Assembly: GCF_018350175.1 (NCBI RefSeq)
Contig: NC_058368.1
Coordinates: forward strand, 92,134,001-92,198,000
Direction: 5' to 3'
Length of the DNA stretch: 64,000 nt
From: Felis catus
Lineage: Eukaryota
The number at the start of each line of letters is the position of its first letter. The stretch's first letter is position 1. The translations under genes were made by a program, and so were the position numbers. A model generated the notes under the pieces. The model worked only from the letters and a program-made list of their open reading frames with translations. It was not told the DNA's origin and did not search any database. Positions 19,452 through 64,000 of this stretch are shown here, one piece after another.

Positions 19452-19550
19452 GGGGAGAAAAGATGGGAAAAAAAAAAAAAGACCAAAAGCAACAAAAACT
19501 AGAAAGGACCAGAGAACACCACCAGAAACTCCAACTCTGCAAGAAACATA

Positions 19551-24252: not shown

Positions 24253-25632
24253 CATCCGTGAGTTACACAAGCACTTTCACTGGGGCTGATTCAGAGGAGG
24301 CCTTTGGGCCAAGGTCAATGCTGGTAGATCTGTAGTAGGTGAAGAATTGCTTGAAGTCCGAGACCCCCATGGAAATAATTTCTTTCAGTAATTCATCTTC
24401 TTTACTCTACCTACTGAAGTGCCTTTACTAATTACTAAGGATAAGTAATTACCACATGCCCTTTTTAAATCTGCATTAGAAGGTTAGTTGGAGTTATAAT
24501 GGCCTCTGGAAGTCTCTGGAATGAGAATTCATAAAAATTGTGGGCTCTCAGGAAGATGTTGAAAATCTGAACAGATTATCAGCAAAGAAATTGAATCAGT
24601 AATCAAAAAACTCCCAACAAACAAAAGCCCAGGACCAAGTGAATTCTACCAAACATTTAAAGAAGAGTTCATACCTATTCTTCCAAACTCTTCCAAAAAA
24701 CAGAAGCGGAAGGAAAACTTCCAAATTCATTCTATAAGGCCAGCATTACCCTGATACCAAAACCAGATAAAGACACCACACAAAAAAGAGAACTAACTAT
24801 ACGCTATTATCCCTGATGAACATGGATGCAAAAGTTCTCAATAAAATGCTAGCAAACTGAATCCAATAATACATTCACTGGGGTGCCTGAGTGGCTTAGC
24901 TGATTAAGCGTCCGACTTCAGCTCAGGTTATGATCTTGCGGTTTGTGAGTTCGAGCCCTACATCGGGCTCTGTGCTGACAGCTCAGAGCCTGGAGCCTGC
25001 TTCGGCTTCTGTGTCTCCCTCTCTCTCTGACCTTCCCCCTCTCATGCTCTGTCTCTATCTCTCAAAAATAAATAAACATTAAAAAACAGAAAAGAATCAC
25101 TCACCAAAATCAAGTGGGATTTATTCCTGGGCTGCAAGGGTAGTTTAATATTCACCAAGCAATCAATATGATACACCACATTAATAAAAGAAAGGATAAG
25201 AATCATGTGATCATTTCAATAGACACAGAAAAAACATTTGACAAAGCACATCCATTCATGATAAAAATACCTAACAAAGTAGGTTTAGAGGAAATGTACA
25301 TCAACATAATAAAAGCCTTATATGAAAAATTCCCAGCTAATGTCATTCTCAATGGGGAAAAACTGAGAGCGTTTCCCCTAAGGTCAGGAACAAGACAAGG
25401 ATGTCCACTCTCACCACTTTTATTTAACACAGTACTGGAAGTCCTAGCCACAGCAAATCAGACAACAAAAAGAAATAAAAGGCATCCCAGTTGGTAAAAG
25501 TGAAACTTGTTACTATACATAGATGACACAATACCATATATAGAAAACTCCAAACACTCCACCGAAAAACTGATAAACAAAGTCAGTAAAGTCGCAGGAT
25601 ACAAAATCACTGTACAGAAATCTGTTGTATTT

Positions 25633-35090: not shown

Positions 35091-44157
<9,067 letters not shown>

Positions 44158-46840
44158 CGTGGGGGGAGGTGGCGGCGCATGGGACTCGAGCTCCCAGCCG
44201 GGCCGGCCCGGCCTCCCGGGCCTACGCGGCGCCTCCGCCTCCCGCCCCGCCCCGGCCAGTCCGCCCCGCCCCTCGGTCCGCCGGGTCCGCCGCTCCAGCC
44301 GCGCCGTGTGCTCCCGGGAGCCGCAGCTTCAAAGGTTCCGCGTTCCAGGACCGCTTGAGTGCTCCTGTCGCCGGACCTCTAACTGCCCACTGGGGGGAAC
44401 TGCTTGTTCTCCCGGGAAACCGAGACCTCAGAGGGGGCTCACGTCACTGGGCCGGTACTGTACTTAGACTCCAGATTTCCAGCGCTCTGGCATGATCTGT
44501 ATCTCCGTCCTGCCGCCCCCTCCTCCTCCCTTCTCGGGCCCAGGTGGTCCATGCTTCCTCCCGTAGCAAGATCGGAGGGTGGCAAGGCCAAGCTCTGGAC
44601 TCCGACTTGGGTTCAGCCCAGACCCCACGTAGTGGTTAGGAGCCAAGCACTGCAGACAGACTGACTGGATTCGAAACCTGATTCTGCCAGTTCGGCTGTG
44701 TTTAGAGGGCAAGCACAATCTCTTGGCATCTTTCCTCACTGGCATGTATAAATAGTTCCTGAGCTACACGTTGCTGTGAGGGTTAATGGAGAACGTAACA
44801 TGCAAGGATACTTGGCACAGTGCTGGGCACATAGGCAACGCTATGTAAACGATGGCCCTTACACAGAAGAGGGGTACTTGGGTGGGGTTGTTTGAAGGGG
44901 GAGGAAGATTGGGTTCTTAGATCCGTCCTGGCACAGTGTGAACCTAGTTGGCTGGGCCAGCCTCCCACCTGGGAAAAGACGGCAGCAGAGTCCCTAGGCT
45001 TGATCTCCGCTCTTCGGAAAATGTTAAGTTCCCTCATAAATAGCTAACATCTATTGAGCTCTTACTATGTGCCCGTCATTGTTCGAAGTTGCTTACTGCT
45101 GTTCTCTCATTCAGTCCTTATGGGTAGTGTACTTACTATGCCCACTTTAAAAATGAGGAAATGAAGACACAGGCAATTCAGGGTGTAAACCAAGATACTT
45201 TGTACAATCTACGGCCTCAACCACTGTGCTTTCAAAAGGACTTTACTGTGAGAAATTAATCATCCCCAGCGACGCCCATTCTCCCTTAAACCCAGCATAC
45301 AACCGACCAAAGAAGGACCTTACTGCTGAACTGTGCCATTGCACTGCACTCTGTAACAGAACTTTGGCAAATCCAGCCCAGGTTTGGCTGGTGACAAAGG
45401 CAAGGCTGACCCCCTGAAGAGACCAGTCAGTGGGGTGAGGCCAATAATGGAAGCAGGGAGGTGGGACTGTGACCTTTGAAAGCACAAGCCCTTCTAAAGG
45501 GGAACAGCTGCCCTTCAGTCTTGCTAATTGTTGTTACATCAGAATGAAGCCCCACTAGCGTCAGATCTGATTTGCCTCAAGAAATCAGATTTCACATAAA
45601 AATCCTAATTAGTTTTAAACAGTGACACCCACAATCATGTTAATAATAAGCACCCTTGGTATGATGGGATGAGAATGGCACCTTTATGGCCTTTCAAAAA
45701 CCCAGAATTCCAGTTCAATCATGAGAAAAACAGCAGACAAATCCCAATTGAGGGAATTCTACAAGATACCTGAACAGTACTCCTAAAAACTGTCAAGGTA
45801 ATAAAAAACAAGGCAAGTCTGAGAAACCGTCACAGCCAAGGAGGGGTGAAATGTAACTTGTCCTGGATGGGATCCTGGGACAGAAAAAAGGGCATTAGGC
45901 AACAGCTAAGAAACTCTGCATACTCTATGGGCTTTAGTTAAAAATAACGTATTGGGAGCCTGGCTGGCTCAATAGCGTGCAACTCTTGATCTTGGAGTCC
46001 TGAGTTTGAGCCCCATGTGGGGTGTAGGGATTACTTAAATAAAACTAAGATAATGTATCAATACTGTTTCATTAACTTGAACACTTGTACCATTCTGGTG
46101 CATGACAATAGGGAGAACTAACATCATGAATTTTCTGTAACGCTAAGGCTATTCTAAACAAATTTTTTGTTTTTATTGTGGAAGAGGTCTAGGAGGTAGT
46201 ATGAGGTCAGACCATATCCCCTTGTCAGTTCAAGTAGTCCACAGCCTGGCCTCCTCAGCCTGTCTCTTTCTCACACCCTGCTGGATTCACCTTCCTCAAA
46301 TTTATCTTCGGTTCTTGTACCCAAAACTGTGTCAAACACTGGGTAATATGCGAGTCTCTTCTAACTCTAACCAACCTCCCTTAACGGCTTCCTCAGCCCC
46401 CTCCCTAAACTCCAGTGGAAACCATGTCCATCCACCTCCATGCCAGCCATCTGCCAGGGCTTCCAACCACGGCTGCTCTGCCTTCTTACATCCGAATCCT
46501 TCTCCTTCAAGGTCCTCCTGAAATCCCATTCTGTTGGTTAAGACCATCTACATCCTCATCCCCACCAGCCCAAGGATTTCTGTCCTTCCCAAACCCGCAG
46601 TGCTCTTCTGTTCAATGCACACTACCTTCCTGAACAAGGCACCAACCCCCCACCATTCACTTGTTTTATGCTCTTGGGCAAACCCACTATCCCCTGCTAC
46701 AGAAAGGTAAAGAGGGGAGGGAAAGAATGAACTTCACAGGTGGGTATTCATCTTAGAATGTTAAGTGCTTTGCATAGAAGAACTGACGTTCCCTGAGCAC
46801 CTCGGTGGCACAGTCACTTTATGTGGGACAAGCGAATTTT

Positions 46841-47543: not shown

Positions 47544-47693
47544 CTACACCAGCTTCTTCGCTTCAAAGAAGCTCTTGAGGTGTCGCATCTGCCAGACGCC
47601 GATGGCTACGAGGATGAGGGTCTGCAGAATGGACCACCACAGCACCCGCTGGTTGGTGCTCTCGCTGGTCTGCCGGAAACGCTCCTCTCGCCA
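47544..47693 (-). CDS. TMED9: TMED9 coding exon 5 (terminal)
   Basis: Encodes [49 protein letters not shown] then TAG. Confidence 0.95.
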
Positions 47694-49664
47694 CTGTGGG
47701 AGGGGAGAGCGGAAGAGGAGCTTAAGTTTGCTGGGCACCACCTGGCGCCACTCTAACTGCTGGGTTCCCTTTGCAGAGGATGCCCCAGAATCAAGGAGCT
47801 ATGCCCAGGTTCCAATCAAATGTCTGCAAAGAGCCAGAGACCCCACCTGGGGACTGTATTCATCCTCCCCAGCCAGATGACCTCCAGGAACCCACTCATT
47901 TAAGTCTGTTTGCTTGGGGGTGCCTGGCTGGCTCAGCTGGTAGAGCATGCAACTCTTGGGGTTGAAGTTCCACATTGGGCATGCAGCCTACTTCAAACCA
48001 ACCAACCAACAACCTCTGTCTGCTCATGTGTCAGGTACAGTCCTCCCCGGTCCTCTCCTAGAGCCAGTGGGGGGAGGGAGGGCGGGGGGGAGGGGAGGTG
48101 AAGTGCCAGTAGTATCACCCCATCAGACAGAGCTGCCCTATAGCACTCAGGAGTGCACGTGCTCTAAGCTTTCTGCCCAGGTCTTCCCCAACTGCTCCTC
48201 GAGGATTGTGGGCACAAGTTGCAAACTGGTGGCCCAGTGGCTGGATGTGTTTTGCCAATAGTTAAAACCTGGTAAAAATTCACATCAAAACACTTGGATC
48301 TCTAGCTCCTCTTAAAAGACAGGGTAGCGTATCTATCTGCAAGGCTACCCTGGGTTGACAATTAACCGAGGCCACTGAGGATTAGACACACAACAGTCCT
48401 TATGGTCACAGATTCATTCATGGTACCGCCTGGCTCCTGGACACAATTGAGTTTGAAATAGCTGGTCCTGGAAGCACCTGGAGCCATGGAAATAACACCC
48501 AAGGTATTAATATCAATTCCCGCTCTGTCACTGTGTACATGTAACTGGGATTTAGAGCAATGATAGCCTCTCAAGAGCCTGTCTCCTTGGTTACACACTG
48601 GAGTTAGTGATCCCCACCCCACCTTTTAGACTTGCAAAGCGGCACAGTTAAGTCCCCTGGCTTTCATAATGAATCTGACACACATGCCACTCCTGGCTGA
48701 GCCAGGGGAAGGCTTCTGGGAAGAAGCCCACCCAGGAGCTCCTGGCCCAACCACATACCCGTTGGTAGTTCTGCTCTTTCTGGATCTGCTCCACTTGCTC
48801 CACCAGCTGTCTCACTCGTAGCTGCAGCTCACTCAACTTGTCTTTGGCGGCAATTTCTGCGTAGTCGTTGGCGTGTTCACCCACCTGGATGTCCAGGTGA
48901 ACTCTCTGGGGACGGACAAGGGAGAGAAAAAGAAATCGGGCAGCCCTGCTCCATCTTCCTGCCAGGCACTGACAGCTGGTCCCCCTACCTTCCTTCATTT
49001 GTGCATTTCGTCCAGTGCTGAGGCCTCCACAGTGTCCAGCCCTATGGGGCTCTAGGCAAACAGGCATGAATAAACTTGGCTGACACTTGGACCAAGGCAC
49101 ATACAAGGAGTTCAGGGACTGTGCCCAGATGTTCAGCGAAAACCCAAAATTATTAGGAGACACAAAATCCGCCACACTCATCTCACACCCAAAGCACTGC
49201 CAGTCTCCAGGCCCCACCAGGGTTTAGAGGTTGAAAGCTACGAGTCCCATGTGGGTCCACTCACCAGCATGCCTCCAGCAAAAAGGGAGAACTTGGTGGA
49301 ATTGGAGTGAAGACAGATCTGGTGTTCGCCGGGGGTATGGGAGGTGAAAGTGAACCTGCCTTCAGAGCCATACTGCCGGGCCAGGATCACCTGGAGACAA
49401 AAGCCTTCAGTGAGTGTTATAGAAAGGATGGGGCTGGAAGGAAAGAAGTCTTAAGGCTCTCTGAGCCTCAAAAGTTAGCCAACAGAGACATAGGCACCCC
49501 ACACACTAAAAGCTCCAAAGCTGCTCGGCGGTAGTTGCCAAAGCTTAGCTGAGAACTTCTGGGGGCAGGGGTGAAGAATCTAAAATGAAGCTGATGTGGG
49601 TCTGCGGTTGGAAAGGGCTCTTTATTCAGAGCTCCTGCCATTTCAACTCTTTTTTGTGTGTGGT

Positions 49665-49695
<31 letters not shown>

Positions 49696-50619
49696 GTGAC
49701 AATGATTTTTTTTTTTTCTTTTGCTTTCCTTTAATATCCTTATCTGGTGAAATTAACAGCTGCTTCTTCGTTTTGGAAAGCACTCTGTCCTGTGAAACCT
49801 TAAAGTCTGGATGCCACAGCGTTAGAGTTGACAAAATTCTTTGACTGCCAGCACCACAATTAAGGCACCAACCACACCTGTAAGATAGGTGAGTTTCCAT
49901 TTCGCAGACCAGGAAACCGGCTCAGGGAAGCTCAGTGACTTGGCAGAGTCACGCAGCAGTCGGTAAGAGGTTGAGAGGAGCCGCTAGCACTGCAGCAGCC
50001 CAAGCTTGGCCTAGAGCGCAAAGCCGGGCGCGATCTTCTCACAACACCCAACTGTCTTCAGCAGTTCAGCAGATGCGGCAACTGGGAGGGGAAGTACCAG
50101 CACCTGCCTGGTCTGGCGCTTAAGCGCAGGGCGGAGGGCTCCGCGGGCTTTGGGGCCGGCTCACCTTGTCCTCTGGGTCCTTCACCTCCACGAACATGCC
50201 GAGCCCGGGGGTGGCCGGCTGGTACTCCTCCCGCTGCTTGTCATACAGCTGCGTCCGGTAGTTTCCTGGAGGGAAGTGGGGCGACTCCAGGTCAGATGAG
50301 CGCGAGGTGGCGCGGAGTCGGCCCACGCCAGCACGCGGCGAGACCGGCTGCTCCCCTTTCTGGAAGAGGTGACTCTCCCGCACCCCCCGCCCCTAGACCA
50401 AGGTCTTGTTCCAAACTCTCCCCCTCCGCCCGCACCTATAACCATGGTCTCGTCCGGGATCTCCTCAATAAAGCACTTCTTTTCGGTCTCCCCGATGTGG
50501 AAGTAAAGCGCGCCTCCGCGGGCCACAAAACACAGAAGCAGCACGAGGGCCCGAATCACCCTTCCCAGTCCCCCTCCGGGCCGGGGCCCGACGACCCTCA
50601 CGCCCTGCTCCGCAGCCAT
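47544..50619 (-). CDS. TMED9: Transmembrane emp24 domain-containing protein 9 (p24alpha2/gp25L2), 235 aa; join(50436..50619,50165..50265,49265..49390,48759..48905,47544..47693)
   Basis: Five exons (184+101+126+147+150 = 708 nt), all GT-AG. Signal peptide, GOLD domain ([18 protein letters not shown]...[11 protein letters not shown]), coiled coil, TM segment and FFEAKKLV tail. Adjacent to B4GALT7, as I recall for other mammals. Confidence 0.97.
48759..48905 (-). CDS. TMED9: TMED9 coding exon 4
   Basis: Encodes [49 protein letters not shown]; ag/gt flanks. Confidence 0.95.
49265..49390 (-). CDS. TMED9: TMED9 coding exon 3
   Basis: Encodes [42 protein letters not shown]; ag/gt flanks. Confidence 0.95.
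50165..50265 (-). CDS. TMED9: TMED9 coding exon 2
   Basis: Encodes [34 protein letters not shown]; ag/gt flanks. Confidence 0.95.
50436..50619 (-). CDS. TMED9: TMED9 coding exon 1
   Basis: gcaagATGG start; donor ATAG|gtgcgg. Confidence 0.95.
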
Positions 50620-50991: not shown

Positions 50992-51214
50992 TAAAAAAAA
51001 TTTTTTTTTCAACGTTTATTTATTTTTGGGACAGAGAGAGACAGAGCTTGAACGGGGGAGGGGCAGAGAGAGAGAGGGAGACACAGAATCGGAAACAGGC
51101 TCCAGGCTCCGAGCCATCAGCCCAGAGCCTGACGCGGGGCTCGAACTCATGGACCGCGAGATCGTGACCTGGCTGAAGTCGGACGCTTAACCGACTGCGC
51201 CACCCAGGCGCCCC
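50992..51214 (-). mobile_element. Young felid CAN-SINE just upstream of the TMED9 promoter
   Basis: Near-identical to the copies at 26317 and 56670; CpG-rich. Confidence 0.92.
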
Positions 51215-51397
51215 GATTTTTAAAAACTGAACTTTAAAAAAATGACACAAACAGTGCACCAACTTATCTTGGAAAAAAAAATTAAAGTACAAAAACAACA
51301 ACAACAAAAAGCTGAGGTCTCATTTTACCACGTCTTTGCCACCTGAAACCCATCCATTGGTAAATCTGGTCTACCCTGGTCTGTATGGTCCCCGGTA

Positions 51398-51440
51398 TCC
51401 CCCCCCTCCCCCCCTCCCCCCCCCCCCCCCCCCCCCGCCC
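51398..51440 (+). repeat. Poly-C tract (~40 nt)
   Basis: Directly visible. Confidence 0.9.
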
Positions 51441-52357
51441 GCACTCTCATCAGTACCGGACATCATCCACGCGAGTGTTGCTGCCGGAGCACTGCCCTGA
51501 TGACTTCTCTCCGAAGGTGGTTCGGTGTCCCAGGGGCCCGCTAGTAAAGGAGTATTGGGGTCTTGGGCCAGGGTCGCCCCGTTTTGGAGGTCTCTGCGCG
51601 CAGTGTGAAATGAACAGAGGTCTGAGTCTGCCCTTCGTGTCCTTCCTGGATTTGATCCATAGTCTACTGTATTGTGGCAGCAGTTTATGACTGTGTGCAT
51701 CGTCAAGGTTTCATAGAAGTTGGAGGTTTTCTCTCTACTTCGGCTTCTCTTTGTTATTTCGTTTGGCCCTGTGGAGGGAAGTTTAATGGCAATCTGTTGA
51801 CATTTCTCCCTCACTGTAAGTCTTGATCTCCTTTTTCTTAACAGTAACAATATAATGTAATCTTTGCTCATACAGTACCTTATTTTTAAACCATTTCTCT
51901 GATGAAAGTGGTTAAGATTTCTTTTCCCCTACTATTTACTCTTACATTTATTGCTGCAATAAATACTCTTGTTCATTTTCTAAAAGAGCATTACTATAGG
52001 ACATAGTTTTTTGATGAAGTCACAAAATTCCCCTTTCAAACTTCATGCCAATTACAGTCTCACCAGCAGTGTGTCCTAATGCTTATTTTCCACACTCTGG
52101 TCTAATGTTCTCAACCTTTTTTTTTTTTTTAATGTTTATTTATTTTTGAGAGAGAGAGAGAGATCATGAACAGGAGAGGAGCAGAGAGAGAAAGGGAGAG
52201 AGAATCCCAAAGAGGCTCCACACTGTCAGCCTCCAACGCAGGGCTCCAACCCACCAATTTATTAGGTCATGACCCGAGCCCAAATCAAGAATCAGACGGT
52301 AAGCTGACTGAGCCAGCCAGGTTGTGCAGGTTGCCCCTGGTTGTGTTTTTCTTAATG

Positions 52358-52408
52358 CTATTATAACTACATGCTATTATAACTACATGCTATTAGCTAC
52401 ATGCTATT
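52358..52408 (+). repeat. Short tandem repeat, about 3 copies of ctattataactacatg
   Basis: Directly visible; third copy imperfect. Confidence 0.8.
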
Positions 52409-53889
52409 TTAACCATCACAAATGATTACAGAATTGGTAAACAATAACATTTTATACTAACAGTTTCTAGTATTTGTAAAATTAAACTTTTTATGTTGAG
52501 ATAACTATAGATTCACATGCAGTTGCAAGAAACAATGCAGAAAGATCCAGTGTACCAATTACCCAGTTTCCCCCATTGTAATATCTTGCCCAAGTATAAT
52601 GCAATATCACAAACAAGACATTGACATTGATAGTCAAGACACAGAACATTTCCATCACCATAGGGATCCCTCATGTTGTGTGTTAAAGCCACACTCACTT
52701 CCCTATTCTTTCATCCTTTCCTTTTTTTTTTTTTAAATGTTTATTTGTTTTTGAGAGAGGATGTGTGAGAGTGGGGCAGGGGCAGAGAGAGAGAGGGAGA
52801 CAGAGGATCTGAAGTAGGTTCCTCACTAACAGCAGAGGGCCCTATGTGGGGCTTGAAATCACAAGGCATGAGATCATGACCTGAACCAAAATCAGGAGTT
52901 GGACGCTCAACCAGCAGAGCCACCCAGGTGCGCTCCTTGTTTTTTTTAATTTTTTTAATTTTTAAAATTTTTAGTTTTGGGAGAGAGAGAGAGAGAGTGC
53001 GTGGAGGAGTAGAGACGGAGACAGAGGATCCGGAGCAAGCTTTGCATTGACAGCAGAGAGCCTGATGTGGGGCTCAAACTCAAGAACTGTGAGATCATGA
53101 CCTGAGCTGAAGTCAGCCACTTAACCAACTGAACCATCCAGGCACCTCTTTTTCACCATCTCCTTAACTTCAGACAACTGATCTGTGTTCTTCATTTCTA
53201 TAATTTTGTCATTTCAAGAATGTATAAATGGAATCATACAGTATATAACCTTTTACGATTGGCTTTTTTCACTTAGTTAATTCTCTGGAGATTTAAGCAG
53301 TTTATTGCTTGTATCAGTTATAGCAAAAAAAGTAACTACTACGTACGATGTGTATACATATAATTTGTTTGATATCAGTTACAGAAAAGGGTGAGAACAG
53401 AGCTAGCTGTTAAAAGGAGCAGAGAGTTTTTGGGTGTTACTGAAGGTAAACTGGTATAAATTCAAATTGGAATGTTTTAACTTTTAGAATATTAAATGTA
53501 ACCCCCATGGTAACCACAAAGAAAATAGCTGTAAAATATACACAGAAGAATGTGGGAAAGGAATTTACATGTTTAACTACTAATTTAGAGGAATTTAGGG
53601 ACCCCTGGGTGGCTCAGTCGGTTAAGCGGCCAACTTCAGCTCAGGCCATGATCTCGCTGTCGGTGGGTTCGAGCCCCGCACCGGGCTTTGTGCTGACAGT
53701 TCAGAGCCTGGAGCCTACTTCAGATTCTGTGTGTCTTTTTCTCCCTCTCTCTCTGCCCCTCCCCTGCTCATGCTCTCAAAAATAAATAAACATTTAAAAA
53801 ATAAAAGCTTTATAGTTTTATACTTTATATTTAAATCTATATTCTATTTTGAGTTCATTTTTTAATAAAGTGTGAGGTATAAGTCAAGT

Positions 53890-53931
<42 letters not shown>

Positions 53932-54195
53932 AAAGGATGGCAAATAACTAAGCATCACTTGTTGAAAAGGCTATCTTCAAGGGGTGCCTGGGTGGCTAAG
54001 TCCAACTTCGGCTCCGCTCATGATCTCATGGTTTGTGAATTCTAGCCCCTCATCAGGCTCTGCGCTGACAGCTCAGAGCCTGGAGCCTGCTTCAGATTCT
54101 GTGTCTCCCTCTCTCTCTGCCCCTACCCAACTCATGCTCTGTCTCTGCTCTCAAAAATAAATGACCATTAAAAAAAATAATAGAAAAGGCTATTT

Positions 54196-55215
54196 TCAAG
54201 AGAATGAGAAGCCAAGCCATAAATTGGGAGAAAATCTCTGTAAAGGATGTATATCAGAAATAATTGCTACCCAAAATATACAAAGAACAGACAAAAAACA
54301 ACAAAATATACAAAGAACCCTTAAAACTCCACAGTAAGAAATGAATAACCCAATGAAGAAATGAGCAAGAGATCTGAACAGACTGTTCAGCAAAGAAGAT
54401 CATACATGGCAAAAAAAAAGCATATGAAAACCTGGTTATGATCATATGTCATTAGGGAAATGCAAATTGAAACAATGAGATACCACCAGGGACCTATTAG
54501 AATGATAAAAATCCAAACACTGACAACCAACACCAAATGCTGGCAAGGTTATGGTGCAACAGGGACTCTTATTCATTGCTGGTGAGAATGCAAAATGTTA
54601 CAGCCACTTTGGATGATAGTTTGATAGTTTCTTATAAGACTAAACATACTCTTAGCATGTAATCCAGCAATAGGGCTCCTTGGTATTTACCCAAATAAAT
54701 TGAAAAGTTATGTCCACACAAAATCTTGCATAAAGATATTTGTAGCAGCTTTATTTATACTTGCCCAAACTTGAAAGCAACCAAGATGTCCTTCAGTAAG
54801 TGAGTGTACAAATAAACTGTGGTACATACAGATAATGGAATATTACTTAGTGCCAAAAAGAAATGGGCTATCAAGCCATGAAAAGACATGGAGAAACCTT
54901 ACATGCAGATTGCTAAGTGAAAGAAGCCAATCCAAAAAACGTTGTTACTGTGTGATTCCAACCATGCAACATTCTAGAAAAGGCAAAAGATCAGTGGTTG
55001 CCAGGAAGGGAGGAGGAGGGATGAATAGGCAGAATGCAGAGTATTCTTAGGGCAATGAAACTATTCTATATGACATTATAATGGTAGATACATGTCCAAA
55101 ACCATAGAATGTAAAACACCAAGATGGACTCCCAATGTAAACTAAGGACTTTGGGTGAAAATAATGTGTCAATGTAGGTTCATTGATTGTAACAAATGTA
55201 CTACTTTGGTGCAGG
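54196..55215 (+). mobile_element. Old L1 (L1MC-like) 3' region between TMED9 and its paralog
   Basis: Degenerate ORF2 end and 3' UTR motifs (MEYYLVPKRNGLSSHEKTW-like). Confidence 0.7.
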
Positions 55216-55256
55216 ATATATTCTAAAAGTTTTTATTTATTTATTTTGAGAGGGGG

Positions 55257-55311
<55 letters not shown>

Positions 55312-56669
55312 AGCAGGGGAGGGTCAGAGAGAGAGAGGGAGAGAGAATCCCGAGAAGGATCCACACTGTCAGCACAGAGCCCAATGCAGGGCTTCATCCC
55401 ACAAATTGTGGGATCGTGACCTGAGTCAAAATCAAGAGTTGGATGATTAACCAACTGAGCCACACCAGTGCCCCTATAGTTTTGATTTTTTGACTAAGGC
55501 ATACAATGTCTTGAAATCAGGTAGACTGATTTCTGCCACTTTATTCTTCTTCACGAATGTTTTACTTATGCTAGTTCCTTTGCCTCTCCATGTAAATTTT
55601 AGAATAATCTTGTCTATGTTAAAAAAAAACAACAACTCCTGGGGCGCCTGGGTGGCTCAGTCAGTTGAGTGTCCGACTTCAGCTCAGGTCATGATCTTGT
55701 GGTCTGTGGGTTCGAGCCCCACATCGGGCTCTGTGCTGACAGCACAGAGCCTGGAGCATGCTTCAGATTCTGTCTCCCTCTCTCTCTCTGTCCCTCCCCT
55801 GCTCATGCTCTTTCTCTCTGTCAAAAATAAATTGAAAAAATTAAAATAAAACAAAACTCCTGGTGGGACTTTGACATGAATTGTGTTAAACTTGGGTAAT
55901 AGTTTGGAAAGAATTGCCATATTTACTATGTTGAGTGTTCTGATCTATGAACACAGTATGTCTCTGCATTTATTTGGTCTTCTTTGACTTTTTCTTCATC
56001 AGAATTTTGTAATTTTCAGCAAACAGATTTTATGCGTATTTTGTTAAGATTTCACGTGAGTAATTCATTTTCTATGAACTGACTGTAAATCATATTGTTT
56101 TTAATTTTGGTTTCCTTATATTTATTGTTAGTATGTAGACATGTGATTGATTTGTACATGTTGCTCTTATGTTATACAAACTTGCTGAATTCATTTATTA
56201 GTTCTAGGAAATCTATGGATTTCTTAGACTTTTCTAAATATATAATCATGTCATCTACAAATAGGGACATTTTTATTTCTTCCTTTCCCATCCGCATGCC
56301 TTTTTTTTTCTTAGCCTTCTTACAGTTACTAGATCTTCTGATACAATGTTAAATAAGAGTGGTGAGAGGGATACCTGGGTGGCCCAGTCGGTTAAGAATC
56401 TGACTCTTGATTTCGGCTCAGGTCATGATCTCACAGTTCGTGGGATCAAGCCCCACATCAGGCTCTGAGCTGACAATATGGAGCCTACTTGGGATTCTCT
56501 CTGTCCCTCTCCCCTCTCTCAAAATACATAAAATAAAATTTTAAAAAGTTTTTTTATTATGAATTATATCAAATCTACCAGTGTTTGAGTGGAAATTAAG
56601 TCTTTATGTAGTTTTATATGCTGTAATATGTCTTCAAATAAATCTCTCCTATTAAAAAAAAAACCCATC

Positions 56670-56889
56670 GGGGCGCCTGGGTGGCGCAGTCGGTTAAACG
56701 TCCGACTTCAGCCAGGTCACGATCTCGCGGTCCGGGAGTTCGAGCCCCGCGTCGGGCTCTGGGCTGATGGCTCGGAGCCTGGAGCCTGTTTCCGATTCTG
56801 TGTCTCCCTCTCTCTCTGCCCCTCCCCCGTTCATGCTCTGTCTCTCTCTGTCCCAAAAATAAAATAAACGTTGAAAAAAAATTTTTTTC
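56670..56889 (+). mobile_element. Young felid CAN-SINE with TSD
   Basis: TSD aaaaaacccatc at 56658-56669 and 56890-56901. Confidence 0.92.
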
Positions 56890-58090
56890 AAAAAACCCAT
56901 CAAATTCTGAGGTCTTGGGTGAACCACAGATGGGGCAAGTAGATGTAGCACCGCAGTGTCTTCTTTTAATCTTGCAAATGGCACCCAGGTTCAGTGGTCT
57001 TGGCAGCAATTGTGGAACGAGCTTTTTGTCAAGTGGGAGGATCGAAGACTGGTGGGTTCACTGCTCTTATGTTCCTAGCCTCGTCATCGATCAGAAATAG
57101 GCTGTTCTATTTTTAACAAAACACTTTTACTCCTTGGGCAGTCATATTCCCCCTTCTTAATGTCTGGATTCTGGGCTTTGAAATCTCACTGGTGCACTAT
57201 CTCCTTACATGTATTTTGATGCAAGCATTTTCCACATTTTACTCTTTGGGGGATTTCTGTGAGTAGTCTGATCAATGGGCCACTTCCACGCAAGACTGGT
57301 TACTCATATAGTGGGGTGTGGGGGCTGCCACTGGTCCATCCATGTTTGTTACAGGTCTGCAATGATTTAAGTACAGAAATTGAGTTTTTAGAACCTTTTA
57401 TAGAAGTTTAACATTGATGTGATATCCAAGCACATGATTAGTTTCATTTTTAATTGTATTTTATAAGAGTATTGGCTTATGAGGGATTGCAAATTTTATT
57501 GGAAACAAAACAAAGCCAATACTTTACTCCAGGTGGTGGTAGTGCTGGTTCAGAGAACAATCAGGACCAAGGACAGCACCCCTGTCTCCCAAACCGGAGT
57601 CCTCGCTTTTCTGCCTTTGCTCCCAGCTGTAGCTACATTCCCTGGTAGACAACTAGTTCCCAAATCAACAGATGCTTTTCAGCTCTTGTTTATTTGGCCT
57701 TTATAAAGCGTGACTGTTATTATCTGAATCTGTCATTTTTGTTTAATAGTCATTCCAAATGAGGAAGTAAGAAACACTCTCCTAGGATTGTCAACGAGCC
57801 ACACCATTAAAATGAGGGGACAATTCCGGTAACTAAAATATATTATCAGTCTTAAAACACTGTATTGTAATTGCTCCTTTTCTTTCAGTGGGCTCTTAGA
57901 TGGCAGATGACAGGTCTAATTCATTTTCATGTCCAACACGTGTCATAACACCTGGACCAGAGTTCGTGTCAGCAAATGCCTGCCACTTATCAACTGGGTG
58001 ATCTTGGGCAAGTTTTTACTCAACTTTGCAGCTGTTTCCCTCTCTAGCTATTAAACTGGAATAGCATTAGAGTCTGCCTAACAATTTTTA

Positions 58091-58191
58091 TTTTTTTTAA
58101 TTTTTTTTTCAATGTTTATTTATTTTTGGGACAGAAAGAGCATGAACGGGGGAGGGGCAGAGAGAGAGGGAGACACACAATCTGAAACAGG
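58091..58191 (-). mobile_element. 5'-truncated young CAN-SINE (~100 bp)
   Basis: 17-nt TSD ctgcctaacaattttta at 58074-58090 and 58192-58208. Confidence 0.9.
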
Positions 58192-58247
58192 CTGCCTAAC
58201 AATTTTTAAAAGATTAGTTCACTTAGTGAACTTAAAAAGTGATTACA

Positions 58248-59260
58248 GGGACACCGGGGTGGCTTAGTCAGTTGAGCTTCCGACTTCGACTCAGGTCATG
58301 ATCTCACGGTTCGTGAAATTTGAACCCCACATCGGGCTCACTATTGTAAGCCTGTCAGTGCAGAGCCTGTTTCTGATCCTCTGTCCCCCTTTCGCTGCCC
58401 CTTCCCCCCTTGTGCTCTCTCAAAAATAAATAAAACATAAAAGGAATCAATTAAAAAAAAAGTGATTACAATAGTGCAGGGCATTAAATAACAAAAAAGA
58501 TGATCATCAGGGTGCCTGGCTAGCTCCAGTTGGGAAGGCATGTGACTTTTGATCTCAGGGTTGTGAGTCCTAGCCCCATGTTGGGTGTAGACATTACTTA
58601 AATAAATAAAATCTTATTTAAAGGGGCACCTAGATGGCTCAGTTGGTTAAGTGTCTGACTTAATTTCTGCTCAGGTCACGATCTCACAGTCATGAGATCA
58701 AGCCCCATGTTGGGCTCTATGCTGGGTGTGAAGCCTGCTTAAGATTCTCTGTCTCTCTTTCTCCCTCCCCTGCTCAAACGTGCTCTCTCTCTCTCTTTCT
58801 CAAAACAACTTATTTTTTTAAAAAATTTCTTTTGGGGTGCCTGGGTAGCTCAGTCGGTTGAGTGTCAGACTTTGGCTCAGGTCATGATCTCATGGTTCAT
58901 GGGTTCCAGCCCTGTGTCGGGCTCTGTACTGACAGCTCAGGGCCTGGAGCCAGCTTTGAATTCTGTGCCTCCCTTTCTCTCTCTGCTCCTCCCCTGCTCA
59001 CACTCTGTCTCTCTCTCAAAAATAAATAAAGATTTAAAAATTTTTAAAAATTTCTTTTAATGTCTATTTACTTTTGAGAGAGAGAGAGAGCGAGCAAGCT
59101 GAAGAGAGGCAGAAAGAGAGGGAGACAAAGAATCCGAAGCAGGCTCCAGACTCTGAGCTGACAGCACAAAGCATGATGCGGCGCTTGAACTCATGAACCA
59201 CGAGACCATGACCTGAGCCGAAGTCAAACACTTAACCTATTGGGACACCCAGGTGCCCCT
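58248..59260. mobile_element. Cluster of five CAN-SINEs, including an inverted tail-to-tail pair (~58834-59040 plus, ~59050-59260 minus)
   Basis: Repeated gggcacctgggtggctcag-type heads and (CT)n/poly-A tails. Confidence 0.85.
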
Positions 59261-59288
59261 CTCAAAAAAAAAAACTTATTAAAAAAAA

Positions 59289-59331
59289 TCATCATCATCA
59301 TCACCACCACCACCACCACCACCACCACCAC
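59289..59331 (+). repeat. (TCA)n(CCA)n trinucleotide microsatellite
   Basis: Directly visible. Confidence 0.9.
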
Positions 59332-60069: not shown

Positions 60070-60610
60070 CGCCGCATGTTGCAGAGGGCAACCCCCCGCC
60101 CCTGAAGCTGTTACCCCAATCGGCAAGATGGGCTAACAGCAGCTACGCCTCCCCGGGTTTCTGCGTGGATTAAGAGATGCCCTGTGGCGGAAAGCGCTCC
60201 AGAGCGTTCCTCCAGGTTGTTGGGGGCGGGGGCGGGGGGGGGGTGTCTCGCTTGGCCCCTCAGCAGCATGGGTCGGCGGGAACGCGCCGGGGGCGGGGCC
60301 ACGCGAGGGCTCCCGGGAGTTGTAGTCCGTGCGCGAGTTTGCAGTCTCCGCAGGCTCCGCGCGGAGACCGGAGGACTCGCCTGGGAAGGTGGCGGGGGCC
60401 TGCGGGGCGCGAGGAGCTGGGCCCCGGGCTGGCCCCGGGCGGGGATGGGGCACAGCGCGGGCAACCGGTATGGCCCTGCCGCTGCTGCTGGGGCAGCTGC
60501 TGGCGCTGATGGGCCCCGGGGACGCGTTCTACCTCGAGGTCCGCGAGCTGGAGGAGAAGTGCTTCATCCAGGAGATCCCCGATGGTACCGTGGTCATAGG
60601 TGCGCGTCTC
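60070..60610 (+). promoter_or_regulatory. CpG-island promoter of the TMED9-like gene: CCAAT (60116-60120), G-rich tract and GC boxes (60222-60300), ZNF143/SBS-type motif (60315-60328)
   Basis: CpG-dense; GGGGCGGGGC boxes; GGGAGTTGTAGTCC is the reverse complement of GGACTACAACTCCC. Confidence 0.75.
60470..60599 (+). CDS. TMED9-like paralog coding exon 1 (could extend upstream to an in-frame GTG at 60389)
   Basis: ggtATGG start; encodes MALPLLL...[24 protein letters not shown]; donor ATAG|gtgcgc. Confidence 0.85.
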
Positions 60611-62510
60611 GGCCAGTCCTGGCCTTGCCCTTCCTGCACCTAGAGTCCTGAGAGGGGAGGGAAATGGGTGGCACCAGCTCAGGCCCGTATCTTCCCTCCC
60701 CTGCCAGGGGTAGGGCTCAGAGGGATGGGTGGACAGCAGTCTGGCCAAGGCATCCTTTCTCTTGCCTGTGCCGGGGATGGGGGCCCTAGGAGGCTAGTCT
60801 GAACCAGACTGGAATGATGGCAGAGAAGTGGGGCTGGAGAAGGGAGGAGAGGCCGAGGGCCGTGGTCGGTCTCCTCAGACTCAAGATCTTCCTGTTCCTC
60901 CCCTGACCACTGGGACTCCATCATGGGTATGGATGGGATTGCACCTCCGTTGCCTCTCCATTAGGTAACTACAAGACGGAGCTATACGACCCTGCTATGG
61001 AAAAGTACCAGCCCTCCCCCCAGTGGATCAATTTATTCGTGTTTGTGAAGGACCCGGAGAACAAGGTGAGGTAGGCCTTTACTCCTTGCAGCCTTCCACC
61101 GGGCCCCCACCCCCAGGCCCCCAGAGTCAATGTGTAGCCTTCTCTAGTCCTTCATTTCTCACAGAAGGATCTGTCTTCTCACAGGCAGGATAGCTTAAGG
61201 AGGGCCGTGCTCTTTGCAAACTGTACTCTGTATTGGCAATGCTGGGATCTGAGAATTTCTGGCCAAACTGATGTCCTTTCTTTCACACTGTCCCCTCTGG
61301 CCTGTGGGGGTGTAGACCTGGGATACCCCTACAATTCTTCTGGAAGCAGGTGTATGGCTAACATCTCTGTGCTCACTGGAGGCTGCTTCCTCTAGAACCT
61401 TCTGGCCCGTCAGTACGGCCCTCAGGGCAGCTTCACCTTCACCTCCCAGTCTCCAGGAGAGCACCAGATCTGCCTCCACCTTGAGTCTATCCGGTTCGCC
61501 CTCTTCTATGATGGCAAGCTGGTGAGTGTGGCAGGTGGGAGGTCCACCATCCCCAGGGGCTCAATTTCTCTGCCTCTAGAGTGAGAAGGGTGCAGTGGGT
61601 GGTGCCTGTTGAGTAGGGCTGGGACTTTACATGAAGTAAGCACATGGGGAACAGATCTTGAGGATAAAAGGAGACCTTGGGAGGGAGTTACCGTGACTTA
61701 AAATCCTCCCTCGGCTCCCTGCCCCATCCCTAGGATACAGACTGAGTTTCACCATGTGAAATTCAGAGCTGTTCTGCTGATTGCTTCAGGCCTCTCCATT
61801 GTCATCTCCCAATGCAGGACTTCTAGTAAACTGCCTCAGAGTCTTACCTCTGTTTCCTTTGCACATGTTGTCCCTATCCTTGGTGTTTTGAATATACAAC
61901 TCCACACAAGCCGAGTCCCGATCTAGTGTTTGGACGCCCAGAGCAAGGCCAGTCAACAAGTTGGTGTGTGAGGAACAGTGTCAGGCCCAGGCTGGGATGC
62001 AGAAGCTAGATTTCCAGCAGGTCCATGGAGCTAAGCTCCCTGACTCCCACCTTTGGTTCCCCCGTTCCAGGCCATTCACTTGGATATGCAGTTGGGTGAA
62101 CGCAGCAACGATTACGTGGAGTTTGCAGCCAAGGACAAGCTGACCCAGCTGCATCTGCGTGTCCAGCAGCTTGTGGAGCAGGTGGAGTTGATCCAGAAGG
62201 AGCAGGAATACCAGAGGGTGAGGGGCTGGGTTGGGCTGGCACAGTTGGGACGGAGGATGTGTCACCTCCTGGGAAGGGAAGCTTCCCGCTCTTCCCCCAG
62301 AGTGGGTGGGGGTGCAATTCAGTTCCGGACGCGTATCTACTCCCTTCTCCCCTCCCACAGTGGCGAGAGGAGCGCTTCCGGCAGACCAGCGAGAGCACCA
62401 ACCAGCGGGTGCTGTGGTGGTCCATTCTGCAGACCTTCATCCTTGTGGCCACAGGTGTCTGGCAGATGCAGCACCTCAAGAGTTTCTTTAAAGCCAAGAA
62501 GCTGGTGTAG
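60470..62510 (+). CDS. TMED9-like p24alpha paralog, 217 aa; join(60470..60599,60965..61065,61396..61521,62071..62217,62361..62510)
   Basis: Five exons (130+101+126+147+150 = 654 nt) with GT-AG introns and no stops or frameshifts. Exons 2-5 are the same length and phase as TMED9. Signal peptide [19 protein letters not shown], both GOLD cysteines (KCFIQ, QICLH), coiled coil, TM segment and FFKAKKLV tail. About 71% identical to TMED9 over the mature protein (140/198, hand count). Confidence 0.92.
60965..61065 (+). CDS. TMED9-like paralog coding exon 2
   Basis: Acceptor ccattag|G, donor AAG|gtgagg; encodes [34 protein letters not shown]. Confidence 0.92.
61396..61521 (+). CDS. TMED9-like paralog coding exon 3
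   Basis: Acceptor ttcctctag|A, donor CTG|gtgagt; encodes [42 protein letters not shown]. Confidence 0.92.
62071..62217 (+). CDS. TMED9-like paralog coding exon 4
   Basis: Acceptor cgttccag|G, donor AGG|gtgagg; encodes [49 protein letters not shown]. Confidence 0.92.
62361..62510 (+). CDS. TMED9-like paralog coding exon 5 (terminal)
   Basis: Acceptor cctcccacag|T; encodes [49 protein letters not shown] then TAG. Confidence 0.93.
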
Positions 62511-62830: not shown

Positions 62831-64000
62831 CTGCAGACTCTCTGACCTAAGCATTTATTGCCTCCTACTCTGCAATTCATTCCGGTGTTTTGTTTCTAAT
62901 CAGATATTGATAGGTGTGTGAGGCCCCACATGTACTGGTGGGGGCTGATCCCAAAATGGATGGGGTGAAGGAAGCTTGTACTCCAAAAGCCTTAGCAACT
63001 TGTGGAGTCCTTTCCAGAAAAGTCCAATTTGGGTCCATCTTATGGGTAACCTGAGTGCTTGTGCGGATCCTCTGTCTCTTTCTGGGGTTGGGTCGAGTTC
63101 ATGTGCTATTCTAGCCACTTGGACTGCTGGGTTCTTCCAGGAGGTCAGGTGGGCACCTCTGTCTTCCTACTATTTTCTGCCAATCTGTGTCTCTCTTTGT
63201 GATGTCACTGGTTGATTTTTTTCAGGAGATTCTTTTTCTCTTTTCTTTCCTTCTTCCCCCTCCTTCCCTCCTTCCTTTCTCTCTTTGTTCCTTTTTCTTT
63301 CTTCCTCTTTCTTCCCTCCTTACTTCCTCTTTCCCTCCCTCTCTCTTCCTTCCTTTCTTTTTCTTAAACAAGATTGGAAGTAATTGTTTCCATTATGTTC
63401 AGCATTCCTGTGACTCAGCCTTCACATGTGCACACAGGTATAGATAACCAGGCATCTATGTACCCACTGCATCTGCCTGATCTAGCCCACGTTTTACCAA
63501 GCCCTCTGCTGGTTGCTCTGTTGGAATATAGTCAGCGCTCATATGAATCTGATGTTTTCTGTCATAAGGAAGCTCACTCATCAATAAAATCAAGTCCAAA
63601 TCATCAAGGCCAAGGGAGACTCCCCATTAGGAGGGGGAAGTTGTGACAAACCCTGCTCTTGGCCCCTGGGACAGACACAACCTCCCCTAAGATACTCTTG
63701 AGGGACGCTGCAAGCCTTGGAGATATTGCTCATTTGTGGGTGTGGTCATGACTGGCCTCTGGAAAGTATGAATGGACTGAACTGAAGGCTGAGGGAAACC
63801 ACTAGAGAGTAACCAGAGTATGTGATCATAGGGTCCATTACCCTTACTTGAAGCTGGTGCATATGTGTGTGTGGGGGGAGGGGGGTGCTCTGCTGTCTGC
63901 CACAGGAGAAGCAGAGTGATCCAGAAAGGCACACTCTTGCACACGGAGCCTCTGGTCTGACACCAAATGAGGCAGGGCTTGAACAACAGCTAAGGGTGAT

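Follow-up and report, generated by a model that had tools for sequence, protein, structure and literature searches.

The window analysed here, a stretch of 64,000 nucleotides from Felis catus, carries on its forward strand a gene of five exons, TMED9-like, whose joined coding sequence of 654 nt encodes a protein of 217 aa with 0 internal stops (Table 1). All four introns (365, 330, 549 and 143 nt, in phases 1, 0, 0 and 0) begin with GT and end with AG. TMED9 proper, the parent gene, lies head to head with it, with 9,850 nt from ATG to ATG, and exons 2-5 have the same lengths (101, 126, 147 and 150 nt) and phases in both genes, whereas the introns of TMED9 (170, 774, 359 and 1065 nt) are of different sizes. 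The reading frame, the head-to-head layout and the exon and intron sizes had been given in a preliminary description of this DNA and were borne out from the coordinates, as was the presence of a CpG island belonging to TMED9-like itself: its CpG o/e ratio is 0.80, while values within the gene body and between the genes are 0.25-0.28. The same description had set the start of the gene at 60389, which is 81 nt 5′ of the ATG, in an in-frame stretch without any ATG.

Some additional features of the locus deserve mention. If transcribed, the upstream ATG at 60445 would open an overlapping uORF of 52 codons. An alternative donor inside exon 4, after 62181, gives rise to a 205-aa isoform, X2, and the Felis catus protein of this isoform (P0013) is identical to the window model at 205/205 positions, except for a 12-aa gap. 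The AATAAA at 63583 probably marks the transcript end of TMED9-like. The galactosyltransferase gene downstream of TMED9 is presumably B4GALT7, going by human gene order. When 188 long ORFs outside TMED9 and TMED9-like were scanned with Pfam, galactosyltransferase exons and L1 fragments were found and nothing else.

Table 1. Features of the TMED9-like locus and its surroundings, in window positions.
Feature	Position	Strand	Details
Beta-1,4-galactosyltransferase exons (Glyco_transf_7N/7C)	35732..40708	-	downstream of TMED9, same strand
TMED9 proper, parent gene	47544..50619	-	five exons, 235 aa
TMED9 exons 1-5	50619-50436, 50265-50165, 49390-49265, 48905-48759, 47693-47544	-	235 aa
CpG island / presumed promoter and 5′ end of TMED9-like	60100..60600	+	GC 0.705, CpG o/e 0.80
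Upstream ATG	60445..60447	+	out of frame (+1) with the main ORF, 25 nt 5′ of the main ATG
TMED9-like exon 1 (130 nt)	60470..60599	+	ATG, hydrophobic putative signal-peptide region, start of GOLD, C31, Q34 (= TMED9 E52 position)
TMED9-like exon 2 (101 nt)	60965..61065	+	GOLD domain; W-I-N-L in place of G-L-G-M
TMED9-like exon 3 (126 nt)	61396..61521	+	GOLD domain; second Cys, C103; N-S-T sequon absent
TMED9-like exon 4 (147 nt)	62071..62217	+	linker and coiled coil
Gene-conversion tract shared with TMED9 (- strand 47619-47708)	62346..62435	+	1 mismatch / 90 nt
TMED9-like exon 5 (150 nt including TAG)	62361..62510	+	end of coiled coil, membrane helix, cytosolic tail with FF and KKLV
AATAAA poly(A) signal	63583..63588	+	sole canonical one from the stop codon to the window end

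The encoded protein matches the p24 family in profile and fold. P0290, a felid ortholog identical to the window protein at 215/217 positions, scores 168.3 bits against Pfam PF01105 (EMP24_GP25L; cut-off 25.9) over profile positions 1-182 of 182, and exons 4 and 5 of the window gene, each taken alone, score 30.1 and 63.8 bits. The TMED9 entry in the PDB is matched without gaps (E 1e-96), and the AF2 model (mean pLDDT 78), with strands within residues 19-130 and one long helix at 134-214, has its best Foldseek matches among p24 GOLD domains (5azw, 5azx, 5gu5 and 7rrm; TMt 0.72-0.79). At the N-terminus of the cat protein, whose start codon is not conserved, the top hydrophobic 15-mer begins at residue 1 (Kyte-Doolittle 1.87) and AF2 places a helix at 2-13, before strand 1; a second hydrophobic peak covers residues 184-201.

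At the sequence level, the elements that couple p24 proteins to oligomers and coats have all been retained, namely the C31-C103 pair, the cores of the coiled coil and of the membrane helix, the FF motif and the C-terminal KKLV. The equivalents of the disulfide cysteines C49 and C121 are found in 17/17 and 19/19 of the TMED9-like rows that have letters there, and the core residues of the coiled coil (L161, L164, L171 and I178) and of the membrane helix (L214 and L225), shared with TMED9, in 18-19/19. The tail ends in FFKAKKLV, and each of F228, F229, K232, K233, L234 and V235 (TMED9 numbering) is present in 19/19 rows; the available part of PMC9888432 attributes a canonical KKXX tail to TMED4, 9, 10 and 11 alone. 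In line with the preliminary description, the protein contains the two GOLD cysteines, an FF..KKLV tail and the peptide [15 protein letters not shown].

The luminal GOLD domain of TMED9-like departs from that of TMED9, and both the kept and the changed residues were interpreted through the available part of the TMED9 cryo-EM paper (PMC11414720). According to it, E52 is a glutamate at the open beta2 edge that is needed for binding MUC1-fs. This position is Q in 17/17 TMED9-like rows with exon 1, while it is E in 14/14 rows of TMED9, 11/11 of TMED4 and 11/13 of TMED11. Similarly, N125 is kept in TMED9 (14/14), TMED4 (11/11) and TMED11 (13/13), whereas all 19/19 TMED9-like rows have E, K or R at this position, together with I or V for T127; no N-x-S/T sequon appeared anywhere in the cat TMED9-like protein when it was scanned. 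W-I-N-L stands where TMED9, TMED4 and TMED11 share G-L-G-M. In total, there are 17 fixed differences from TMED9, 7 of them at sites common to TMED9, TMED4 and TMED11. Other changes (TMED9 numbering) include Q165 to H, N183 to E and E163 to Q or L; R223 is changed in 14/19 rows and E230 is K in 16/19.

Among orthologs, the domain is strongly conserved. Over its 100 residues, the cat sequence is identical (100/100) to those of bear, otter, horse, rhino and pangolin, and 96-99/100 residues agree in seal, whales, pig, camel, cow, bats and mole, although conservation is far lower in lagomorphs and shrews (75-82%). The earlier claim of purifying selection on TMED9-like holds at the protein level only, through this very strong conservation. 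A scan of metagenome contigs with P0290 for ortholog DNA gave 16 loci (best 73% over part of the protein), all of them p24 genes of other organisms, with 0 orthologs.

Regarding its origin, TMED9-like is a DNA-level duplicate rather than a retrocopy because its introns share the positions and phases of those of TMED9, as had been claimed. A processed retrocopy was considered and ruled out, given the four GT-AG introns at the parental positions and phases. It was also considered whether TMED9-like might be the TMED9 orthologue at this locus, which is not the case: the neighbour on the reverse strand has a mature protein that agrees at 198/198 positions with the cluster representatives for primate and rodent TMED9, versus 140/198 (71%) between mature TMED9-like and TMED9. 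TMED9-like also evolves faster (cat and rabbit agree at 162/198 positions, while TMED9 is 198/198 among cat, monkey and mouse), and its putative signal-peptide region is variable and shorter than that of TMED9.

In phylogenetic trees, TMED9-like branches within the TMED9 clade and has a long stem. In a careful tree (61 rows x 224 columns), the TMED9-like clade obtained 100/100, its grouping with eutherian TMED9 100/99 and the split between lagomorph and laurasiatherian sequences within it 99/81; these orthologs have been inherited vertically across Laurasiatheria and Lagomorpha. A quick tree of the mature protein alone gave 98 for TMED9 plus TMED9-like and 94 for TMED9-like plus eutherian TMED9. 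When each half of the protein was used alone, TMED9-like as sister of mammalian TMED9 was not resolved. The GOLD domain of the cat protein is 60% identical to that of mammalian TMED9, 55-57% to other TMED9, 53-54% to TMED4 and 39-44% to TMED11 (cat TMED9 and felid TMED4 agree at 84/100 GOLD positions), and overall its identity is 63-64% to TMED4 and 45-46% to TMED11.

A p24-alpha phylogeny with TMED4, TMED9 and TMED11 had been proposed as a check, and the trees do group the gene with TMED9, but placing it with TMED11 instead is not formally rejected by AU tests (p 0.17 and 0.21). The latter result is the one point in favour of TMED9-like being the true ortholog of TMED11 (gp25L) or TMED4, to which we give practically no credence. 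Felids, including Felis catus, have separate TMED11 (P0172 and P0160) and TMED4 (P0117) genes, and the presence of a TMED11 gene in the very species that carries TMED9-like rules out orthology between the two: Felis catus P0172 is on a contig of ~205 Mb and TMED9-like proteins are on contigs of ~239 Mb. Additionally, the dog “Glycoprotein 25L” (P0384) sides with felid TMED11 (94% identity), and lagomorphs carry both TMED9-like and TMED11. TMED11 (p24alpha1, canine gp25L) resembles TMED9-like in being an alpha on a long branch that some lineages lack or have only in non-functional form, but cat, dog, pika and hare each carry it as a gene of its own, and it ranges from sharks to mammals. TMED4 (p24alpha3) has the alpha-type GOLD, coiled coil and FF and KKLV tail in common with TMED9-like, but it keeps E52, G-L-G-M and N-S-T and forms its own clade. 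With separate TMED11 and TMED4 genes in felids and true TMED9 (p24alpha2, gp25L2) next door, the description of TMED9-like as a fourth p24-alpha proved right.

The likeness to TMED9 is not evenly distributed along the gene. A near-identical tract, comprising the last 15 nt of intron 4 and the first 75 nt of exon 5, has a dS between the two genes of 0.063, against 1.08 in exons 2-4 (binomial P = 6e-5), and the longest inverted repeat within 46-64 kb (47544-47713 / 62341-62510; 170 nt, 92%) is found at the same place. The C-terminus had been called TMED9-type, and the likeness at the start of exon 5 is indeed there, but it is due to gene conversion with TMED9 and not to ancestry alone.

This tract raises the question of whether the duplication could be far older than placentals, with the likeness to TMED9 produced by conversion homogenising the 3′ part, or TMED9-like being a deep sister of TMED11. 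We find this improbable, although the saturated dS of exons 2-4 and the AU results would fit it, as would a GOLD-only tree in which the relations of TMED9-like to tetrapod and teleost TMED9 collapse into a polytomy. Against it, identity follows the same order in every domain, GOLD included (mammalian TMED9, other TMED9, TMED4 and TMED11), and TMED9-like adjoins TMED9 with identical exon lengths. The distribution of the gene also speaks against it. Every named ortholog match is from Laurasiatheria or Lagomorpha, as had been suggested by the claim of lineage restriction: one search gave Laurasiatheria and Ochotona, a further one added rabbit, hare, shrews and mole, and the taxa of the 10 ortholog clusters inspected are likewise all from these groups, beside Logan, ENA and MetaClust rows lacking a taxon. 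Among the ortholog candidates, 53/56 matched exon 3. In searches of protein databases, no copy appeared in any primate, rodent, afrotherian, xenarthran or marsupial, and TMED9-like is missing from the human and mouse protein sets. By contrast, a TMED11 search of the same database returned afrotherians, xenarthrans, marsupials, a monotreme, birds and reptiles; an old origin of TMED9-like would therefore require many losses.

Consequently, we consider, with a probability of about 80%, that TMED9-like is a functional fourth p24-alpha, produced when TMED9 was duplicated in inverted orientation at the DNA level, at the latest in the common ancestor of Laurasiatheria and Glires, and that its luminal GOLD domain would have diverged rapidly at first and come close to a freeze afterwards. 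It is a new and uncharacterised member of a known family: databases name it “TMED9-like” across Laurasiatheria and Lagomorpha, which agrees with the automatic annotation that had been anticipated, and no paper on it was found in the literature by variants of the gene name or ortholog UniProt accessions, a search that did not cover the vertebrate p24 survey of Strating et al. 2009 (Mol Biol Evol). The name searches gave only false hits, among them a match to SAMD9L and, going by their titles, papers on Citrus, salmon and trout. The expectation that the gene is probably uncharacterised therefore stands.

Species differ in the start codon of TMED9-like. The Met of the cat protein is Leu in the models from horse, rhino, dolphin, whale, pig and camel, many of the RefSeq models have 163 aa with an internal Met start and no signal peptide, and, in mustelid orthologs, the Met matching the upstream ATG of cat is in frame and starts a protein of 225 aa. 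Spliced junctions are seen in two assembled transcripts, each represented by a Logan protein: in P0006 exon 2 runs directly into exon 3 (76/76 identical), and P0315, from a contig of 1,277 nt, holds one ORF of 177 aa that corresponds to residues 41-217. Introns 1 and/or 3 are retained in P0006 and in the dog model P0008.

The unconserved start codon, the 163-aa models, the overlapping uORF of cat and the retained introns might be taken as signs of a decaying or untranslated duplicate, that is, a transcribed pseudogene or an annotation artefact. This is very unlikely, as full-length models from 8/8 orders sampled all have an open frame, the GOLD sequences of three orders agree at 100/100 positions and the stretch 5′ of the internal Met is conserved as well as the remainder. 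Neutral divergence between cat and horse is ~0.3 substitutions per site, and neutrality is incompatible with such GOLD identity across orders.

All functional claims on TMED9-like derive from homology. It would be a type I membrane protein that cycles among the ER, ERGIC and cis-Golgi by binding COPII (FF) and COPI (KKXX) and, like TMED9, forms assemblies with further p24 subunits. Its luminal specificity would differ from that of TMED9, given E52Q, the change of G-L-G-M to W-I-N-L and the loss of the sequon, and changes at trimer-bridging coiled-coil residues and at the PIP-binding arginine suggest that higher-order self-assembly may be weaker.

It could also be that TMED9-like is a redundant back-up of TMED9, with the same biochemical role and differing just in the place or time of its expression; its separate CpG island, 9.85 kb from that of TMED9, would accord with this, as would the full retention of coat-binding and oligomer-core residues and the fact that primates and rodents apparently manage without the gene. 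Nevertheless, we deem it unlikely, as a GOLD domain with 60% identity to TMED9 and 17 fixed differences, including E52 (cargo binding), that was then frozen across orders amounts to a burst of change followed by a freeze, which is not what simple redundancy predicts. Going beyond the functional fourth p24-alpha proposed above, neofunctionalisation is a possibility that we put forward tentatively and with more doubt than belief: an unglycosylated, re-tooled GOLD domain could serve a cargo or partner dispensable in primates and rodents, with translation from a non-AUG start in most species. The latter is proposed because no conserved AUG precedes the conserved part of exon 1 that encodes the putative signal peptide and the beginning of GOLD.

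As far as the available parts of the sources go, reviews count ten mammalian TMED genes, three of them alphas (PMC7045115), and nine are given for human (PMC10620864). Functional work on TMED proteins has been carried out nearly always in human or mouse, that is, in species apparently without TMED9-like, while dog, cat, pig, cow, horse and rabbit would own an extra alpha subunit competing for p24 complexes. The MDCK cell line, veterinary medicine and large-animal models all draw on these species. An additional alpha would bear on the interpretation of TMED9 knock-downs, cargo-entrapment studies and TMED9-directed compounds in them. Additionally, TMED9-like may be seen as a natural experiment on the GOLD domain, in which the cargo-edge glutamate and the glycan site were altered once and have been frozen since.

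The gene model of TMED9-like, an extra p24alpha gene that had been described as an intact, intron-containing duplicate of TMED9, was reproduced by a scripted joining of its five exons, which yielded a 654-nt frame of 217 codons closed by its only stop. Its introns (365, 330, 549 and 143 nt; phases 1, 0, 0 and 0) are all of the GT...AG type. All numbers of the preliminary description were reproduced except the start of 60389 that it assigned to the gene, which is unsupported: this position is 81 nt upstream of the start codon, within a stretch that is in frame but has no ATG. A tblastn search of the window with the TMED9-like protein revealed a second five-exon set on the minus strand, modelled as a 235-aa TMED9 whose mature protein is identical (198/198) to the squirrel monkey and deer mouse TMED9 cluster representatives. 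As had been claimed, exons 2-5 have equal lengths in both genes, the TMED9 introns have other sizes (170, 774, 359 and 1065 nt), and the genes lie head to head, approximately 9.9 kb apart (9,850 nt from ATG to ATG). The claim that TMED9-like has its own CpG island also held, with an observed/expected ratio outside it, in the gene body and in intergenic DNA, of 0.25-0.28.

Features of the TMED9-like/TMED9 locus (positions within the window)
Feature	Position	Strand	Length (nt)	Remark
TMED9-like exon 1	60470-60599	+	130	
TMED9-like exon 2	60965-61065	+	101	
TMED9-like exon 3	61396-61521	+	126	
TMED9-like exon 4	62071-62217	+	147	
TMED9-like exon 5	62361-62510	+	150	including TAG
TMED9-like CpG island	60100-60600			5′ end; GC 0.705, CpG o/e 0.80
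AATAAA	63583	+		downstream of TMED9-like
Exon 3 run into intron 3	61522-61581	+		P0006 and P0008
TMED9 exon 1	50619-50436	-		modelled after tblastn
TMED9 exon 2	50265-50165	-	101	modelled after tblastn
TMED9 exon 3	49390-49265	-	126	modelled after tblastn
TMED9 exon 4	48905-48759	-	147	modelled after tblastn
TMED9 exon 5	47693-47544	-	150	modelled after tblastn
P0126 alternative first coding exon	51455-51700	-		82/82 residues
Near-identical tract, TMED9-like	62346-62435	+	90	1 mismatch
Near-identical tract, TMED9	47619-47708	-	90	1 mismatch
Spacer	51000-59300			AT-rich, GC 0.405
CpG island	~43700-44600			GC 0.667, o/e 0.79
Glyco_transf_7N/7C exons	35732-40708	-		downstream of TMED9
LINE-1 fragments	18877-25494	+		broken ORFs

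The window model matches a database protein, the Felis catus "TMED9-like isoform X2" (P0013, 205 aa), at 205/205 residues, and the 12-aa gap in the latter coincides with an internal GT donor that follows position 62181 in exon 4. Similarly, four of the five tblastn segments of the Felis catus TMED9 model P0126 match the window at 100%; this 255-aa UniProt model has an alternative first coding exon replacing the normal exon 1 of TMED9. These matches identify the window as DNA of the cat or a very close felid.

TMED9-like and the TMED9 of the window share 140 of 198 residues (71%), with tblastn identities of 53, 56, 66, 73 and 92% from exon 1 to exon 5. In the main tree (IQ-TREE, LG+C20+F+G4 PMSF, 61 rows and 224 columns), built from 19 TMED9-like, 14 TMED9, 11 TMED4, 13 TMED11 and 4 invertebrate or protist rows hand-picked from about 490 retrieved proteins, the TMED9-like clade obtained a support of 100/100, and its grouping with four eutherian TMED9 rows one of 100/99. 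Lagomorph rows were sister to the 16 laurasiatherian ones (99/81) and, thus, the gene tree matches the species tree. The TMED9-like stem measured 1.28 changes per column, and three long outgroup rows were erratically placed. A quick search without these rows and the signal-peptide columns (198 columns) gave SH-aLRT values of 98 for TMED9 plus TMED9-like and 94 for TMED9-like plus eutherian TMED9, and half-protein trees (100 GOLD columns; 98 C-terminal columns) placed TMED9-like and tetrapod TMED9 together without resolving their branching. Two AU tests detract from a clean result, as trees forced to unite TMED9-like with TMED11 were only 13.4 and 11.8 lnL units worse (p 0.17 and 0.21) and were not rejected. 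Both are long-stem clades. We base the origin of TMED9-like from TMED9 jointly on the trees that were preferred, the ranking of identities across all domains, the adjacency to TMED9 with identical exon lengths, and the narrow taxonomic range.

TMED9-like is not TMED11 itself, since the cat and other felids have their own TMED11 (proteins P0160 and P0172), encoded on contigs of about 205 Mb, while TMED9-like proteins are on contigs of about 239 Mb. Felid TMED11 and the dog "Glycoprotein 25L" (P0384) share 94% identity, in agreement with the review PMC9888432, which identifies canine gp25L as TMED11. Nor is it TMED4, which in felids is a separate protein (P0117). Cat TMED9-like has a mature-protein identity of 45-46% with TMED11 and of 63-64% with TMED4. 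These separate felid proteins agree with the proposal of a fourth p24alpha.

A search with exon 3 alone returned 53 matches among 56 candidates, and one with the otter ortholog gave 861 matches, of which the best 120 were listed; ten clusters were inspected. Among the matches listed, all named proteins more than 72% identical came from Carnivora, Perissodactyla, Pholidota, Cetartiodactyla, Eulipotyphla (mole, desman and shrews), bats (Rhinolophus and Hipposideros) or Lagomorpha (rabbit, hare and two pikas), as expected from the proposed lineage restriction. Orthologs from primates, rodents, afrotherians, xenarthrans, marsupials or non-mammals were absent from these matches to annotated proteomes, in line with the earlier statement that human and mouse have no such gene beside TMED9. 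As TMED11 from all groups without TMED9-like was recovered in the same database, this absence concerns annotated proteomes and is not a coverage gap; pseudogene remnants may exist in these groups.

Over 100 GOLD columns, the cat protein is identical to those of bear, otter, horse, rhino and pangolin, and 96-99 positions are shared with seal, two whales, pig, camel, cow, two bats and mole. Sorex (82/100) and lagomorphs (approximately 75-80%) are faster lineages, and conservation is lowest in exon 4 (40-45/49), which encodes the linker and coiled coil. Neutral cat-horse divergence is expected to be about 0.3 substitutions per site, and zero changes in 100 GOLD codons between these species would be incompatible with neutrality. 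At the protein level, the conservation signal is strong. Between cat TMED9-like and TMED9, exons 2-4 gave a dN of 0.25 and a dS of 1.08 (omega 0.23). The stem of the clade accumulated 0.73 changes per column in the GOLD domain versus 0.095 in the C-terminal half. Additionally, cat TMED9 and felid TMED4, which are much older paralogs, still share 84 of 100 GOLD positions, versus 60 of 100 for TMED9-like and TMED9. The pattern amounts to a burst of change followed by a freeze.

A tract that starts 15 nt before the end of intron 4 and runs 75 nt into exon 5 is almost identical in both genes, and their similarity stops at the stop codon. No inverted repeat in 46-64 kb is longer than the pair containing this tract (170 nt, 92%). 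Recent gene conversion between the two inverted copies is indicated by dS, which is 0.063 over the initial 25 codons of exon 5, compared with 0.70 over its final 24 and 1.08 over exons 2-4; at the exon 2-4 rate, one synonymous difference or fewer in 25 same-residue codons has a probability of 6e-5. Recent conversion in this lineage thus accounts in part for the C-terminal peptide, which had been described as TMED9-type.

The numbering that follows is that of human TMED9; the PDB TMED9 chain aligns gap-free with the felid ortholog. TMED9-like proteins keep C49 (17/17 rows) and C121 (19/19), the coiled-coil core residues L161, L164, L171 and I178 (18-19/19), the membrane-helix core residues L214 and L225 (19/19), most intra-trimer polar residues, and FF and KKLV (19/19). 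By contrast, 17 GOLD positions are fixed unlike TMED9, 7 of them at sites common to TMED9, TMED4 and TMED11. E52 is Q in all 17 rows with exon 1, G82-L-G-M85 became W-I-N-L, H113 and S124 became Q and L, and the sequon N125-S-T127 is gone in 19/19 rows, with no N-x-S/T anywhere in the cat protein. Further changes are Q165 to H (18/19), N183 to E (19/19), E163 to Q or L (19/19), R223 to Q or L (14/19), E230 to K (16/19) and replacement of Q177 (10/19). PMC11414720 places E52 of TMED9 at the open beta2 edge, with a strong reduction of MUC1-fs binding by E52R; in the same paper, Q177A and R223E compromise self-oligomerisation, and E163, Q165 and N183 are among the residues that may bridge coiled-coil trimers. 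In an AF2 model of a felid ortholog (mean pLDDT 78.3, pTM 0.45), which Foldseek matches best to crystal structures of p24 GOLD domains, Q34 (equivalent to E52) is in strand 30-36, W-I-N-L just precedes strand 67-72, and a single helix spans 134-214.

For expression, the evidence is indirect and stems from assembled transcripts in Logan. In P0006 (2,136-nt contig), exon 2 is joined straight to exon 3 (76/76 identical), and intron-derived residues on both sides indicate a partly spliced transcript. P0315 (1,277-nt contig), from a horse/cattle cluster, has a single 177-aa ORF over residues 41-217, 89% identical to cat, so introns 2-4 must be absent from it. Isoform models X1 and X2 recur in carnivores. 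Both P0006 and the dog model P0008 run from exon 3 into the 549-nt intron 3, suggesting that it is frequently retained.

The start codon varies among species. The cat Met is also found in felids, bears, seals and panda, but the models of horse, rhino, dolphin, whale, pig and camel have Leu in its place and extend to differing ATGs far upstream (258-327 aa); in cow and Rhinolophus, a Met lies eight codons before it. The mustelid start is equivalent to the cat ATG at 60445, which lies out of frame 25 nt ahead of the main ATG and would begin an overlapping uORF of 52 codons. Many RefSeq entries (cetaceans, equids, deer, hippo and pika) have 163 aa, starting at an internal Met without signal peptide, yet the residues upstream of this Met are no less conserved than the rest. 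A non-AUG start in most species is possible.

Regarding the surroundings, the beta-1,4-galactosyltransferase exons on the same strand as TMED9 presumably belong to B4GALT7, which would fit the human order TMED9-B4GALT7; the CpG island at ~43700-44600 lies at the presumed 5′ end of this gene. The 9.85-kb spacer is full of 60-190-nt interspersed repeats in both orientations (64/65 inverted pairs in 46-64 kb, 25 listed), probably SINEs, and no long ORF in it contained a Pfam domain. LINE-1 pieces (ORF1 RBD, dsRBD-like, endonuclease and reverse transcriptase) lie in separate broken ORFs.

We consider TMED9-like a functional, conserved p24-alpha paralog with a probability of roughly 0.8. Its parts are present in the sequence, and from homology we infer the function they would serve. 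As a probable type I membrane protein, it would join p24 oligomers via the conserved coiled coil and membrane helix and cycle between ER, ERGIC and Golgi through FF (COPII) and KKLV (COPI), and it may form fewer higher-order oligomers with itself. As its luminal face would be different and unglycosylated, its cargo or partner preference should differ; we lean slightly towards such an altered luminal specificity. Reviews list three p24 alphas and ten TMED genes in mammals (PMC7045115), and the abstract of PMC10620864 gives nine for human. Targeted full-text searches, with a 2009 vertebrate p24 survey outside their scope, found no paper on TMED9-like, which is known from sequence databases under automatic names only, as had been anticipated. 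It is an uncharacterised addition to a well-known family; its history is unusual and its cargo face has been re-tooled.
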